From a virus: a DNA stretch of 64,000 bases. Under the pieces are notes generated by a model, which ran no database searches, was not told the DNA's origin, and saw only the letters and a list, made by a program, of their open reading frames with translations. The first letter of the stretch is position 1, and each line of letters starts with the position of its first letter. The stretch covers positions 32,001-96,000 of the IMG/VR virus record IMGVR_UViG_3300009157_000001; one strand, written 5' to 3'. Of the stretch, positions 23,950 to 50,203 are shown in pieces. A program made the translations under genes and the position numbers.

Positions 23950-24217
23950 GTTCTATTGAGGTTCCTTTAGGTAATGCATTGTAGTCCTCACCACTTACAT
24001 CAGATTCCCAGGTCTTACCTATATCCGGTGAGCTAGGATTTTTCTTATCGTGTAATACTGTTACATATGTTGCAGAAGCAGAACCATCCTCCTTCTTATC
24101 ATTGCTCTTGGTTACAAGTACAATTTGTCCGTACTTACTTACCATCAATCTGGGGAACTCCCCTGTGTTCTTCTCAATTGGTTTATAGGTTACTTGCATA
24201 ATTATTATTGGTTTTAG

Positions 24218-24303
24218 TTGTGATGACTGGCATCGAACCAGCAACCTCCAGTCAGAAATGGGTTCAGAACTGACTGGTGCTCTACCAATTGAGCTACACC
24301 ACA
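24218..24303 (-). tRNA. tRNA-like RNA with an expanded anticodon arm
   Basis: Acceptor TGTGGTG/CATCACA, D arm GCTC-AATTGGTA-GAGC, T arm GCTGG-TTCGATG-CCAGT; anticodon arm CCAGTCAG/CTGACTGG with a 14-nt loop, so no anticodon can be assigned. Confidence 0.8.
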
Positions 24304-26366: not shown

Positions 26367-26808
26367 AAGTTACCTTAATTATATACCTTTTCCTAAAAGG
26401 ATAGTTCCATCCTCGAGCTCTTTTAATACTAGTTGCAGAACATCTCAAGTATCTAGCAGCCATCTCCATACTAGGAAAATACATCTGATTCATACTTTCC
26501 TTATCAAAACAACTTACCAAATATCCATCAGTCTTGACTGGCTTTACATAAACTTTACAAGGACAACCTAATTTATAGATAAGGTGGTTATTGAATTTTG
26601 GTTGCTTTCTTCTACCTTTTCCAAGAATGATTTGGGAAATCATAGATTGAATACTTTTTCTAGGAAGATTATACATCCCAAGTAAATATCTAGAAGCATC
26701 ATTCTGAGATTCAGCCTTATACACCTCCTTACACTGAAGAGTATAGACAGTAACTGGAATTTTCTTGTCATCATGAGAAGGATATTTAAGAGTACCTTCT
26801 GCTTTCAT
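26338..26808 (-). CDS. NUMOD1-like HTH DNA-binding protein (possible homing-endonuclease remnant)
   Basis: Two repeats, ESQNDASRYL and FPSMEMAARYL; no nuclease motif seen. Confidence 0.55.
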   Translation of the reverse strand: MKAEGTLKYPSHDDKKIPVTVYTLQCKEVYKAESQNDASRYLLGMYNLPRKSIQSMISQIILGKGRRKQPKFNNHLIYKLGCPCKVYVKPVKTDGYLVSCFDKESMNQMYFPSMEMAARYLRCSATSIKRARGWNYPFRKRYIIKVTYENKKHSAR

Positions 26809-26934
26809 CCTGAATCTGATTCTTATCTTTTTTCATAGTACTTTGTATTAAGGTCCTTTCCAGTTTCCTTACTAAGGTCCTTCTCTGTTCAGTCATTTTC
26901 TGGCAAGAGCCAAAGCTTTATACTTATTTGTAGA

Positions 26935-27010
26935 CAAAGTAGTAGCTACCTGGATGGTTAGAATTGTCATGATTGTAATTCACATCATTCAGTACCTAGC
27001 TAGAGGTAGT
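26935..27010 (-). repeat. DGR template repeat TR-B
   Basis: Non-coding and AAT-rich; differs from VR-C only at adenines and from VR-B almost only at adenines. Confidence 0.95.
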
Positions 27011-27018
27011 ATAAAAGC

Positions 27019-27525
27019 TTAATCTAAGTAATCTATCCATACATCCATAAAAGTAGAAACAGCAAATTTACACTTTTCTTCAGTCTCAAAGTAGCAGCCA
27101 CCCGGACGGTTAGAAACGGCACGAGTGAAGGAAATCCCAACATTCAGCACCCAGCCAGAGGTAGTCTTCTTAAACCAAGGATAATACTTCTTCTGATCAC
27201 CATTATTGAAGTCAGCAATCCACTCACCATTTAGAATAGTGGATATATTGTTAATTCTATGTAATGCAAACTGTCTCTTTCTCTGATCCTCAGGTAAAAA
27301 AGAGAAGTGTTCTAAAGTAAGTTCTTCAAATCCACCTTCTTCACAAATATCCTGGTAGTCTTTTATCCTACTAACAAGATCAATCTTGCTCAGAAGAGAC
27401 TTTGCAGATCTCTTATTAAGACAATGACTAGTCCCACGAAGAATAGTAGCAGCAAGATACATAGACTGCGGATCTTTACTTGTAACCATTTCTTTTAAAG
27501 AATTATAGTTCTGATTTGTCTTCAT
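27019..27525 (-). CDS. DGR target protein B (YPWF family)
   Basis: LNGEWIADF...KKYYPWF followed by VR-B. Confidence 0.9.
   Translation of the reverse strand: MKTNQNYNSLKEMVTSKDPQSMYLAATILRGTSHCLNKRSAKSLLSKIDLVSRIKDYQDICEEGGFEELTLEHFSFLPEDQRKRQFALHRINNISTILNGEWIADFNNGDQKKYYPWFKKTTSGWVLNVGISFTRAVSNRPGGCYFETEEKCKFAVSTFMDVWIDYLD
27087..27165 (-). repeat. DGR variable repeat VR-B
   Basis: About 15 substitutions at TR-B adenines, plus one T>G and one extra codon. Confidence 0.9.
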
Positions 27526-28476
27526 ACTGAATACTTTTTTCTTAGATTCTTACTATCACAATACTTAAGCCATCCATTGTAGGAATTAAGAGATGCTCTG
27601 TTCTTTCTGTACTTTACCATCTTTATAAACCTCTTCTTTATTCCTTTTCTGAGAAGAATATGTGTATGATAAAACTTGTACCCCACAAAATCTATTCCTC
27701 TGGAACTAACCGGGAATACCTGATGATTGAAATTAACCAGAAGTTTTAGATTATTCCATAAATACTGCTTAATTTTTACCAAAAGATCATGTAACTCCTT
27801 CTTGTTTGATCCCAGGATAACTATATCATCACAATACCTAAAATAGTATTTTACCCCCCCCTGAACTACTCTTAATCCAATGGTCAAAGTAAGTAAGATA
27901 GAAATTGGCCAAGTATTGTGAAAGATAATTTCCGATTGGTATACCCGGAGCACTGTTAATTATCTCATCTAGAAGTAATAAGAGCCTGGGATCTTTGAAC
28001 TTTTTCCTAAGAAGAACTTTCAGAATATCATGATCTATAGAAGGATAGAACTTCTTTATATCAAGTTTTAGACAGTAAGTTGTTCCCTGGACATCCAAAA
28101 GAGATTTTCTTAAAGTTCTCCAAACCCCATGTATACCCCTACCTTCTATACAACTGTAGGTATCTGCTGTAAAAATGGACAGGAATATAGGCTTTAGAAT
28201 ATTCATTATTCCATGATGAACTATCCGATCAGGATAATAAGGAAGTCTATAAATCTCTCTTTTCTTAGGCTCGGAAATTGTATAAACCGTATAAAGAGAG
28301 GTCTTGTACTCTCTCTTATTCAGAACATGATAAAGATTTATGATATTGTCTTCCTTATTCTTGTCATGGAGAATCACTCCATACTGTCTGGACTTTCCCA
28401 GTCTAGCTTTGGAATCTGCTAACTTGAGATTAGCTATAGTACATATTTTTGAGTAAAGATTTCCAACTCTTTTCAT
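27522..28476 (-). CDS. DGR reverse transcriptase, split by a frameshift at a G8 run (27854-27861)
   Basis: ORF 27838-28476 has DRIVHH, KLDIKKFYPSIDH and GIPIGNYLSQ; ORF 27522-27953 has YFRYCDD and GIDFVGY; removing one G joins them into a protein of about 317 aa. Confidence 0.93.
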
Positions 28477-28581
28477 AGATTCACTTCACTTAAGATCTTC
28501 TTCCCAAAGATTTTGGTACCAAAGCTCTTGTTACTAATGTTTGTCTTTTACCTAGAGGTAAGATCATACTACACATAAAGA

Positions 28582-28650
28582 AGTGGAGACTGAAGCTCAT
28601 GTTAGCATTATCATCATTCCAATTAGTATAAGAATTCACTCGCTAACTAG
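28582..28650 (-). repeat. DGR template repeat TR-A
   Basis: 69 nt; 16 of 17 differences from VR-A are at TR adenines. Confidence 0.95.
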
Positions 28651-28670
28651 CTGAGAATTAATAATATGAC

Positions 28671-29201
28671 CTACTCAGGAAGCCACTCTATATATTGTGG
28701 AAGGAAGATGTTTCCTCCAAATAGAGCAAGCTCCTCAGATTTATAGTGAAGACCGAAGCCCACGTCAGCACTACCATCAGCCCAACCAGCACAAGAACTC
28801 ACCCGCCAACCAGAAGAGGTTTTCTCAAACCAGGGAAAGTACTTCTTCTGATTTTTGTCCAGGAAATTTGGTATCCATCCTTCATTAAGGGCTAGAATCC
28901 CATACTGAAGTTTGGCCTGTCCATTTTGTGATATCTGATACTTGTTCTTGGGGTTTAAAAAAGGCAAGATATCTGACTCTATAACCCCGGTCTCATCATA
29001 AGCATCGGATATTGATTTGATCCTTTCCATAATAGGAATCTTACCAAGAAGACTCCTTGCCATTCTCTCTTCTATATGAAGAGAATTACCTCTCAAAAAA
29101 CAAGCAGCTAAGTATCTTGACTGAACATCTTTAGACTCAATCAGTTCCTTTATTCCCTGAATTGTTTTTATTTCTGTGGTTTTCTTCATCTCGGTAAACA
29201 T
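28671..29201 (-). CDS. DGR target protein A (YPWF family)
   Basis: ALNEGWIPNF...KKYFPWF followed by VR-A. Confidence 0.9.
   Translation of the reverse strand: MFTEMKKTTEIKTIQGIKELIESKDVQSRYLAACFLRGNSLHIEERMARSLLGKIPIMERIKSISDAYDETGVIESDILPFLNPKNKYQISQNGQAKLQYGILALNEGWIPNFLDKNQKKYFPWFEKTSSGWRVSSCAGWADGSADVGFGLHYKSEELALFGGNIFLPQYIEWLPE
28745..28813 (-). repeat. DGR variable repeat VR-A
   Basis: Colinear with TR-A; encodes GWRVSSCAGWADGSADVGFGLH. Confidence 0.92.
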
Positions 29202-29692
29202 ATATCATGTAAATAGATCATTCCTGTTGCAAAACCGATTGATTCCTCCGGAAAAAATACTTGGGTAAGCCTCTCCATATTATGATACACATGGTACAGA
29301 TCGTCTCTTCTACAAAGAGCTGTATGTCTTGTTCTTACTTTCTTACTTGTTATTTTCTTTGCTTTTTCAATACTTAGTACTAAATTCTTATATAATGCAT
29401 AAAGATCAAATTCTGCTACTGAGGGAATAAACTCACAGTATAAAACTTGCTTATACATTAATCCTTTACTTACAATAGACTTGTGTTTTGCTGTACTATT
29501 AGAATATCCCTGACTTGTAAAAAGATAGAGTATAGACCCATCTTGTTTAAGTACTCTCTTTGCTATAGGGAAATGATATCCATAAGAATAAATTGCATTT
29601 TTCTCAAAAAACATACTTCTACTATAAGTTTCTCCTTGAATATCTCCTGCTACAAAACCTTCTACAAGTTCTTCCTGACTTCTATACTTCAT
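29186..29692 (-). CDS. Conserved phage hypothetical protein
   Basis: IYSYGYHFPIA...YSNSTAKH motif. Confidence 0.65.
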   Translation of the reverse strand: MKYRSQEELVEGFVAGDIQGETYSRSMFFEKNAIYSYGYHFPIAKRVLKQDGSILYLFTSQGYSNSTAKHKSIVSKGLMYKQVLYCEFIPSVAEFDLYALYKNLVLSIEKAKKITSKKVRTRHTALCRRDDLYHVYHNMERLTQVFFPEESIGFATGMIYLHDICLPR

Positions 29693-49777: not shown

Positions 49778-50203
49778 TTAACTATTAAGCCATCTTGTGT
49801 AACTGATGGATAAGAACCTCTCTGTTATTAATCTGGCAGTACTCTCCTCTTTAAAGTAGCAGCCACCCGGACGGCAAGAACCGTCACGATCGCAATACAC
49901 AGCATACAGTACCCAGCCAGAGGCAGTTTTTCTAAACCAAGGATAATACTTGGGAGTATTATCAGTAAAATCTGCCTTCCAGATCCTGTAACCATTATCC
50001 AGATAGTTGGCAGCTTTTATAATAGCTCTGATCTCCTCATCAGGTGAAGGTGAAACTTTTGGTTTCTCTTTCAGGATCTTAACTGCACTTTTATAAGAGA
50101 TGAGACTATCCATTCCTTTATCATCCTTCTCAATTATCTTTCTGAGTGCTAGAGCTTCTGCATCCAGAGCATCCATACGTTTTAGTGTTTCTTTTCTGTT
50201 CAT
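49778..50203 (-). CDS. Remote DGR target protein C (YPWF family)
   Basis: WKADF...KYYPWF followed by VR-C. Confidence 0.92.
   Translation of the reverse strand: MNRKETLKRMDALDAEALALRKIIEKDDKGMDSLISYKSAVKILKEKPKVSPSPDEEIRAIIKAANYLDNGYRIWKADFTDNTPKYYPWFRKTASGWVLYAVYCDRDGSCRPGGCYFKEESTARLITERFLSISYTRWLNS
49853..49927 (-). repeat. DGR variable repeat VR-C (template TR-B)
   Basis: 75 nt, ungapped against 26936-27010; all 17 mismatches are at TR adenines. Confidence 0.95.

Follow-up and report, generated by a model that had tools for sequence, protein, structure and literature searches.

How can the template repeat (TR) of a diversity-generating retroelement (DGR) hold a stop codon in the reading frame of its targets, at the codon where the variable repeats (VRs) of those targets encode a conserved tryptophan? 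The question is raised by a 64,000-nucleotide (nt) stretch of viral DNA (the window), which comprises bases 32001-96000 of the 126,634-bp virus record IMGVR_UViG_3300009157_000001, a record carrying direct terminal repeats. Two TRs in this window serve one reverse transcriptase (RT), and each of three target genes (A, B and C) contains a VR. The differences between TRs and VRs are adenine-specific, family-wide, dependent on sequence context and found at silent sites as well, and both the TAG/TGG pair and the adenines that stand in the templates for framework guanines recur in related phages. The repeats are as follows.

28746..28811, minus strand: VR-A core, 66 nt, with TGG at 28808..28806 (base-by-base alignment to TR-A)

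28583..28648, minus strand: TR-A core, 66 nt, with the in-frame TAG at 28645..28643 (orthologue of the downstream TR of the related locus L006)

27088..27165, minus strand: VR-B, 78 nt including a 3-nt insertion near 27130-27132, with TGG at 27153..27151 (alignment to TR-B)

26936..27010, minus strand: TR-B core, 75 nt, with the in-frame TAG at 26998..26996 (templates VR-B and VR-C)

49853..49927, minus strand: VR-C, 75 nt, with TGG at 49915..49913 (alignment to TR-B)

An earlier reading of the window from its letters alone (the original prediction) had placed TAG in both TRs against TGG in all three VRs, and alignment in the target frame bears this out. The TAG of TR-B lies opposite the TGG of both VR-B and VR-C, that of TR-A lies opposite the TGG of VR-A, and in all three VRs the tryptophan codon sits in an S-G-W motif. 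The immediate context of the stop is T-A-G-G in TR-B and T-A-G-C in TR-A.

The predicted numbers of A-to-G changes (15/16 in VR-A, 13/17 in VR-C and 9/15 in VR-B) were reproduced. Between TR-B and VR-C, the 24 template adenines of the 75-nt core read as 13 G, 3 T and 1 C with 7 kept, and with 0 mismatches at other bases all differences (17/17) lie at template adenines. In the 66-nt core of VR-A, the 21 adenines of TR-A read as 15 G and 1 C with 5 kept; the only other difference is a C>T at the 3' edge (28749), giving 16/17 at adenines. VR-B differs from TR-B by 9 G, 4 T and 2 C with 9 kept, one T>G and the 3-nt insertion. Pooled over the three VRs, 37/48 changes are to G (binomial test: P = 7e-10 for an expected share of one third, 3e-4 for the family mean of 0.52). 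Eight adenines of TR-B read G in both VR-B and VR-C, where 4.7 would be expected by chance (hypergeometric P = 0.008). The excess of G is strongest outside AAY codons (Y, pyrimidine), with 26/30 changes to G as compared to 11/18 within them, and all 13/13 adenines that precede a G read G. Outcomes other than G are limited to AAY, GAY and TAC codons, and silent changes are present, namely CGA>CGG and GTA>GTG (VR-B only) and CCA>CCG (VR-B and VR-C), both as had been claimed.

The TAG is a genuine stop in this genome. It ends target A and 15/86 open reading frames (ORFs) of at least 150 amino acids (aa), and no suppressor tRNA was found in the genome, the sole tRNA being tRNA-Gln(ctg). This tRNA (24217-24303, minus strand, ARAGORN) is 87 nt long, which exceeds the standard tRNA length. 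Reading TAG as an amino acid was rejected, since TAG, TGA and TAA taken as sense codons lengthen the ORFs similarly and there is no suppressor tRNA. Outside the window (G000:C1:99179-104161), ORFs of 733 aa and 926 aa share one frame with a single TAG between them; they may represent two neighbouring genes or a single instance of read-through.

How widespread such stops are was assessed by our own DiGReF-like scan, which accepted a TR on the strand of the RT or of the target with all non-A bases matching, a minimum length of 50 nt and 7 or more adenine substitutions. Three sets, 239 loci in all, were scanned: 80 RT-relative loci (the best 80 of 568 relatives, 63-72% identity), 79 viral target-relative loci and 80 metagenome target-relative loci. 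The scan finds only same-strand pairs without indels and would miss the TR-B/VR-B pair of the window. Identical TR/VR pairs were counted once, and one pair of L037 was left out, its best frame running more than 200 nt past the VR. Pairs mismatched at two or more non-A bases, and pairs whose TR and VR lay closer than 150 nt to each other (tandem repeats), were dropped in the second and third scans, as were loci shorter than 1500 nt in the third. As contigs, loci L084/L085 are identical to L006/L007, and L163 to L086; these are duplicates.

TR/VR pairs were found in 73/80 RT-relative, 47/79 target-relative and 33/80 metagenome loci. The relatives are built uniformly: 1-3 tandem targets of 125-200 aa come first, followed by a TR of about 75 nt that closely precedes the RT. 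Over the three surveys, an in-frame stop occurs in 17/120 distinct in-frame TRs. By TR/VR rows, 9 have TAG opposite TGG, 29 have TAA opposite TTT, TTC or TAT at the 3' end, and 2 are odd cases.

The survey of related DGRs that had been proposed as a check found the TAG/TGG pair again in three loci. In L006 and L007, the best RT matches (72% identity), the RT is followed by a second target and TR, as in the window; their two TRs are the orthologues of TR-A and TR-B, each with TAG opposite the TGG of the VRs. In L164, a third lineage with two TRs, TR1 reads CAG TAG opposite CGG TGG. Guanine at the tryptophan codon of related TRs had been named as a sign of recent G-to-A decay. The TRs of L006/L007 and L164 have A there; the TAG therefore appears inherited rather than a product of recent decay.

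Some further observations concern these loci. The order of the modules is swapped, the A-type target and TR lying upstream of the RT in the window and downstream in L006, and the B-type the reverse. L086/L163 carry a target with 46% identity and the S-G-W motif; adenine-tolerant local alignment found no TR for it within 3 kb, making it an orphan target like target C. A single-protein scan of viral contigs found no close relatives of target B; the alignment query did find relatives. The TRs that end in TAA are those of L046, L051, L052, L059, L063, L067, L078, L083, L149-L152, L205, L206, L222 and L232. Their terminal TAA stands against Phe or Tyr (TTT, TTC, TAT) in the VR, and the adenines are thus written as T, not G.

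Adenines at framework positions are the rule in this family. Among 48 distinct TR 3' ends, the conserved Gly is templated as AGN in 43 and the conserved Arg as CAN in 43, and in 37 the Leu after this Arg is templated as CTA and reads CTT in the VR. Over the first survey (125 pairs, 2617 template adenines), 52% of the changes are to G, the share being lower inside AAY codons (41%) than outside them (64%). Against these shares, the window is clearly richer in G outside AAY codons (26/30 against 0.64, P = 0.006) and weakly so within them (11/18 against 0.41, P = 0.07). Among the 125 VRs the G share per VR reaches 0.92 at most, with the median at 0.53 and the 95th percentile at 0.77; VR-A (0.94) lies above all of them, VR-C (0.76) near the 95th percentile, and VR-B (0.60) is ordinary.

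The outcome at a template adenine depends on its neighbours. Contexts were counted over 198 distinct TR/VR pairs of related loci, which are snapshots of VRs and not complementary DNA (cDNA), with the following results.

All A before G, n = 503: G 427, A kept 54, T 20, C 2

C-A-G, n = 414: G 399, A kept 5, T 10, C 0

C-A-C, n = 189: G 162, A kept 21, T 6, C 0

T-A-G, n = 72: G 15, A kept 49, T 6, C 2

Before a G, 427/449 of the changes in the family are to G. Of the adenines with a 5' C, 93% are changed, with 84% of the changes to G, as compared to about 40% G for the other 5' neighbours. At silent four-fold sites before G, the VR reads G at 143/147 and keeps A at 3/147 (within C-A-G-G, G at 129/133). 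Both in the window and in the VR snapshots of the family, A-to-G is thus dominant outside AAC/AC and strong before a 3' G. One group of near-identical TRs with 53 distinct natural VR alleles gives the finest view. Its core sites show mixed outcomes; a silent GCA|GGT between variable sites reads G in 51 alleles and A in 2, and C-AGG-T reads G in 49 and T in 4. Only 4 bases from this silent site, T-AGC-A keeps its A in 44/53 alleles, and this one Ser codon supplies most of the kept adenines at T-A-G sites. An absolute 3'-neighbour rule was rejected on account of the T-A-G sites. A rule by which the 3' neighbour is copied (dislocation) fits A|G read as G and CTA|T read as T, and fails at A|C, where G makes up 71% of the changes and C 4%.

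The best reading of these data, and in our view probably the right one though by no wide measure, is an A-to-G bias of the RT combined with loss of truncated alleles. The RT would copy the TR RNA into cDNA and, opposite adenines outside AAY codons, insert mostly C, giving A-to-G. Before a G, and above all in C-A-G and A-G-G, insertion of C would be nearly invariable, and many cDNAs would then already read TGG and the proper Gly and Arg codons. Homing events that leave TAG or a wrong framework residue would yield a target truncated by about 45 residues or misfolded, and would be lost. Bases other than A would be copied faithfully, leaving adenine positions as the only ones that can differ stably between TR and VR; framework differences would therefore look like A-to-G bias. 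Purging is needed because T-A-G sites can be copied faithfully, and as the TAG of TR-A stands in a T-A-G-C context, loss of truncated alleles must also act there.

Two ideas of the original prediction are thereby each kept in part. It had proposed that the RT reads isolated adenines almost always as G, which holds before G in general (427/503, and 143/147 at silent sites) and fails at the T-A-G sites. It had offered as an alternative that unmutated copies are purged; purging seems to contribute, since the T-A-G exceptions require it, and an effect of the RT is supported as well. RT bias and purging both seem to contribute.

Several points weigh against this combination. T-A-G sites keep their A in 49/72 cases, which breaks the context rule, and in L164 a T-AGT beside the TAG is also kept. 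The TAG of TR-A, in its T-A-G-C context, would need heavy purging. An enzyme resembling bRT, the RT of the BPP-1 DGR, would be expected to leave most silent adenines before G as A, and A is kept at 3/147. Many of the counted sites are homologous positions, and the counts are not independent events. With a frameshift in the RT of this record and an indel in VR-B, the element may be inactive at present. A look-up of sequencing runs covering positions 26800-29300 listed none. For the silent-site guanines three explanations remain: an RT that is more complete in this clade, flanks that are rarely rewritten, or retention of G at the level of DNA.

A stricter form of the RT bias is conceivable, and we put it forward tentatively, as less likely than not to hold in full. 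In this clade, certain template adenines before G, those in C-A-G and A-G-G above all, would act as 'hidden guanines', at which G is written almost obligatorily, perhaps through a slip back on the base just copied. If this is true, the template may differ from its targets at framework and even at silent positions; it can hold stops and stay poor in GC and CpG while regenerating a functional, GC-rich VR, and it perhaps escapes being a homing target itself. The TAG would then be no defect, but part of a deterministic second layer of code beside the random AAY layer.

The strongest competitor, which we consider unlikely, is that rewriting seldom if ever reaches the framework flanks with the TAG codon. 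Normally only the AAY-rich core would be replaced by homing, and the flank differences would be old and fixed, possibly with a function like that of the IMH/IMH* elements (initiation of mutagenic homing). The VR1 alleles of L006 and L007, which are independent, share all five A-to-G changes of the 5' flank while their cores differ. At the silent position that shows CTA>CTT across the family, TR-A reads CTC (28586) and VR-A reads CTT (28749); overwriting therefore does not reach this site, which suggests that the 3' edge lies outside the rewritten tract in an IMH-like manner. The difference CTA|TGC to CTT|TGC is constant (74/78) across the family, and crAssphage LMMB has been described with IMH/IMH* at its repeat ends (PMC7290462). 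Drift in flanks that are not rewritten should, however, add C/T and other mismatches, and the flank differences lie almost only at template adenines. In the 53-allele group, the adenine sites of the 3' flank vary independently (T, C, G, A) as under mutagenesis, and that flank region is therefore mutagenised. The codon beside the TAG differs between the orthologous TRs (TCA and CGA) and the VRs follow their own TR (TCG and CGG), from which it follows that homing covered this codon.

The original prediction had also raised the possibility that the in-frame TAG is a selected 'mutagenesis checkpoint', such that a full-length protein comes only from error-containing cDNA. We regard this as quite improbable, and the survey lends it no support. 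The TAG is kept at the same codon in the TRs of three lineages (window, L006/L007 and L164), and other TRs of the family keep a TAA at the 3' end where the VRs have Phe or Tyr; such conservation is equally expected for a near-neutral adenine that is usually written as G. Most TRs of the family encode the equivalent aromatic residue as TTC/TTT, without adenine, and a single adenine reports on one position only, with no evident benefit.

All parts of the cassette lie on the minus strand in the order target A/VR-A, TR-A, split RT, target B/VR-B, TR-B; target C with VR-C lies about 22 kb away, its VR matching TR-B. Besides the repeats, the features are as follows.

28671..29201, minus strand: target gene A, 176 aa, stop TAG (ORF list; phrog_11581, E 2.3e-9)

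27838..28476, minus strand: N-terminal ORF of the RT, 212 aa, with IGNYLSQ, ending prematurely after the G8 run (RVT_1, E 4.3e-9; phrog_1423, E 6e-73)

27854..27861, minus strand: G8 homopolymer, where the RT frame shifts just before YCDD (read from the sequence)

27522..27860, minus strand: C-terminal part of the RT in the shifted frame, with YCDD (phrog_1423, E 7e-33; RVT_1, E 5.8e-4, below the curated cut-off)

27019..27525, minus strand: target gene B, 168 aa, stop TAA (phrog_11581, E 4.8e-14; AlphaFold model with a pLDDT, the predicted local distance difference test, of 92)

49778..50203, minus strand: target gene C, 141 aa (ORF and translation, aligned with targets A and B)

An inactive, decaying DGR, with template adenines arising from recent G-to-A decay of the TRs, is highly improbable as the source of the pattern. 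The copy does show damage. At the G8 run (27854-27861), the sole run of G7 or longer within the window, a shift of one base interrupts the RT frame in this record, which may reflect a sequencing error, slippage or phase variation; the RT of L006 is intact (319 aa) and has no G run at that place. The 3-nt insertion and one T>G (27137) set VR-B apart from TR-B; no rewriting from TR-B can have followed these changes. The genome is AT-rich (38.7% GC) and poor in CpG. The copy of the cassette in this record may have been turned off or have suffered recent damage. Mismatches at bases other than A are absent from the cores of VR-A and VR-C, which, beyond the C>T at the 3' edge of VR-A, are clean. The same TAG and framework adenines occur in the orthologous TRs of L006/L007, whose RT is intact, and in L164. 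The differences are strand-specific (A in the TR against G in the VR, with no T in the TR against C in the VR), which is not as in ordinary decay, and the CA-to-CG rule holds in relatives with a CpG observed/expected ratio (o/e) near 1. Recent decay of the TRs is largely refuted, to judge from the related TR sequences. The TAG is older than this copy, and the damage to RT and VR-B leaves its reading unchanged.

Immediately 5' of TR-B and overlapping the end of target B, positions 27018-27029 (minus strand) read ACT TAG ATT AAG. The counterpart in VR-B (27170-27181, minus strand) reads CCT TGG TTT AAG (P-W-F-K), with 3 mismatches, all at template adenines, followed by a 4-nt indel. The TR may once have been longer and have included a second TAG/TGG pair, of which this is a relic, or the likeness may be due to chance.

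The CpG content had been taken as a sign that the guanines were written recently. The VRs are indeed rich in CpG, with 3, 4 and 5 CpG, in a genome with a CpG o/e of 0.236 where just 2.4% of 76-nt windows hold at least 3, and all 5 CpG of VR-C are CA in TR-B. The GC content is 0.54-0.56 for the VRs and 0.36-0.37 for the TRs, the 3' end of each VR being richer in GC than the TR. CpG richness is no proof of recent guanines, because the CA-to-CG rule holds in relatives with normal CpG. CpG depletion is found also in the closest relatives L006 and L007 (o/e 0.32-0.35), while most other loci of the DGR family are near 1. Decay of CpG in the TR by deamination was rejected as a general cause (median o/e of the related loci 0.965); with CpG near normal, the related loci still have fewer CpG in the TR than in the VR (6.7 and 10.2). 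The CpG richness of the VRs would follow, as a side effect, from the writing of CA as CG.

Repair of a T:G mismatch can restore C:G. Retention of G at the level of DNA would make use of this: the T of a faithful cDNA would pair with a G of the VR strand, repair would restore C:G, and the guanines would be 'sticky'. To this explanation we give as little credence as to decay. The high change and G rates of adenines with a 5' C given above (CpA in the TR and CpG in the VR) and the persistence of G at silent sites would be accounted for. The four T-A-G sites of the window are not CpG and yet read G in both VRs, and a context effect of the RT fits the pattern too.

A-to-I editing of the TR RNA, after which the RT would read adenines as G, would give pure A-to-G at particular sites including silent ones, but is the least probable explanation and, although host enzymes may still act, finds no support: the phage has no CDA-fold (cytidine deaminase) enzyme by a search for PF00383 whose control matched in 12/14 genomes (the search for the ADAR-type PF02137 was uninformative, its control matching nowhere), the same pattern occurs in many phages from different habitats, and the published bias of bRT yields A-to-G without editing.

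With the bias of the RT and the loss of truncated alleles as the preferred reading, the element itself is an ordinary DGR of a phage clade with small target proteins. The RT carries the [LIV]GxxxSQ motif of DGR-type RTs as IGNYLSQ and the YxDD motif as YCDD, the latter in the shifted frame. No Pfam or PHROGs match to an Avd-type family was found in the two ORFs flanking the cassette, the only ones scanned for it; DGRs of lineage 3 are described as lacking avd (PMC7290462). At the DNA level the RT region has its matches among the RT genes of crAss-like phages, from which we infer that the phage is probably crAss-like. Each of the three VRs lies about 20-25 codons ahead of the stop of an ORF of 141-176 aa. 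Targets A and B belong to phrog_11581, a family of unknown function, and the small-target family shares motifs such as KYYPWF and GSRLCF. The AlphaFold model of target B (pLDDT 92) has a helical N-terminal part, a β hairpin with the start of the VR and two C-terminal helices. Foldseek found no match to this model in the PDB at E <= 0.001, and the best hit of VIA-align wide (Z 6.3) covers residues 1-66 only; neither gave a PDB fold match covering the VR-bearing part.

Natural TRs are said to avoid nonsense codons (PMC4372165, PMC10907252, PMC12875486, bioRxiv 10.1101/2025.03.24.644984). Against these papers, which hold that composition prevents nonsense, natural templates carry a real stop at a conserved tryptophan in at least three phage lineages, and about 1/7 of the templates of the wider family carry some in-frame stop. 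A literature search with supplementary data outside its scope found no description of a natural TR with an in-frame stop, nor of fixed A-to-G framework sites. The templating of framework guanines by adenines across a clade, extending even to the tryptophan codon, is apparently undescribed in a DGR of otherwise known kind. The silent-site counts serve as a natural read-out free of selection. If the bias is confirmed, calculations of DGR diversity would be refined, because many template adenines are not variable, and design rules would follow for DGR-based mutagenesis tools; if it is not, the pattern is one of survivorship, a curiosity of a known system.

The G excess itself has a precedent. DiGReF (PMC3521204) reports G as the commonest and C as the rarest outcome across 155 DGRs, with individual VRs varying widely; it puts much of the excess down to selection, argues against a strong enzymatic bias and treats observed VRs as a snapshot biased by selection. 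Its sites are not split by context or into silent and coding, as is done in the present analysis.

The DGR of crAssphage LMMB (lineage 3, target-VR(IMH)-TR(IMH*)-RT, no avd; PMC7290462) resembles that of the window in belonging to a crAss-like phage and in having the TR directly upstream of the RT, and the RT regions are similar at the DNA level (74.6% over 126 nt). It diversifies a tail-collar fibre protein of 486 aa through a VR of 35 codons (C-type lectin class; PMC7290462), whereas the window has three small targets, two TRs and a remote third VR. In the LMMB paper (PMC7290462), 'stop codon' and 'TAG' have 0 occurrences.

With the BPP-1 DGR, the element shares adenine-specific differences between TR and VR, mixed outcomes in AAY codons and the [LIV]GxxxSQ motif of the RT. 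The target in BPP-1 is a tail-fibre protein; here the targets are of 140-176 aa, two TRs serve one RT and the TRs hold in-frame stops. For bRT in E. coli, misincorporation of C is reported to make up 59.3% of errors (PMC12875486), A-to-G prevails in most contexts, with AAC/AC the only ones where the spectrum broadens (bioRxiv 10.1101/2025.08.18.670894, the preprint of PMC12875486), and a 3' G gives a strong A-to-G bias at a lower error rate (bioRxiv 10.1101/2025.03.24.644984, the DGRec preprint). Both the prevalence of A-to-G outside AAC/AC and the effect of the 3' G are thus alike in the two systems, and the confinement of other outcomes to AAY, GAY and TAC codons is as the bRT data predict. 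Two differences from bRT stand out. An A-C context raises A-to-C in bRT, whereas the A-C sites of the relatives change mainly to G. The average error rate of bRT is reported as about 30% (PMC12875486; bioRxiv 10.1101/2025.03.24.644984) and is lower before G, whereas in the window and its relatives adenines before G are read as G at 427/503 sites (143/147 of the silent ones) in the surviving alleles. These counts suggest that the RTs of this clade may convert adenine before G far more completely than does bRT, the enzyme that has been measured.

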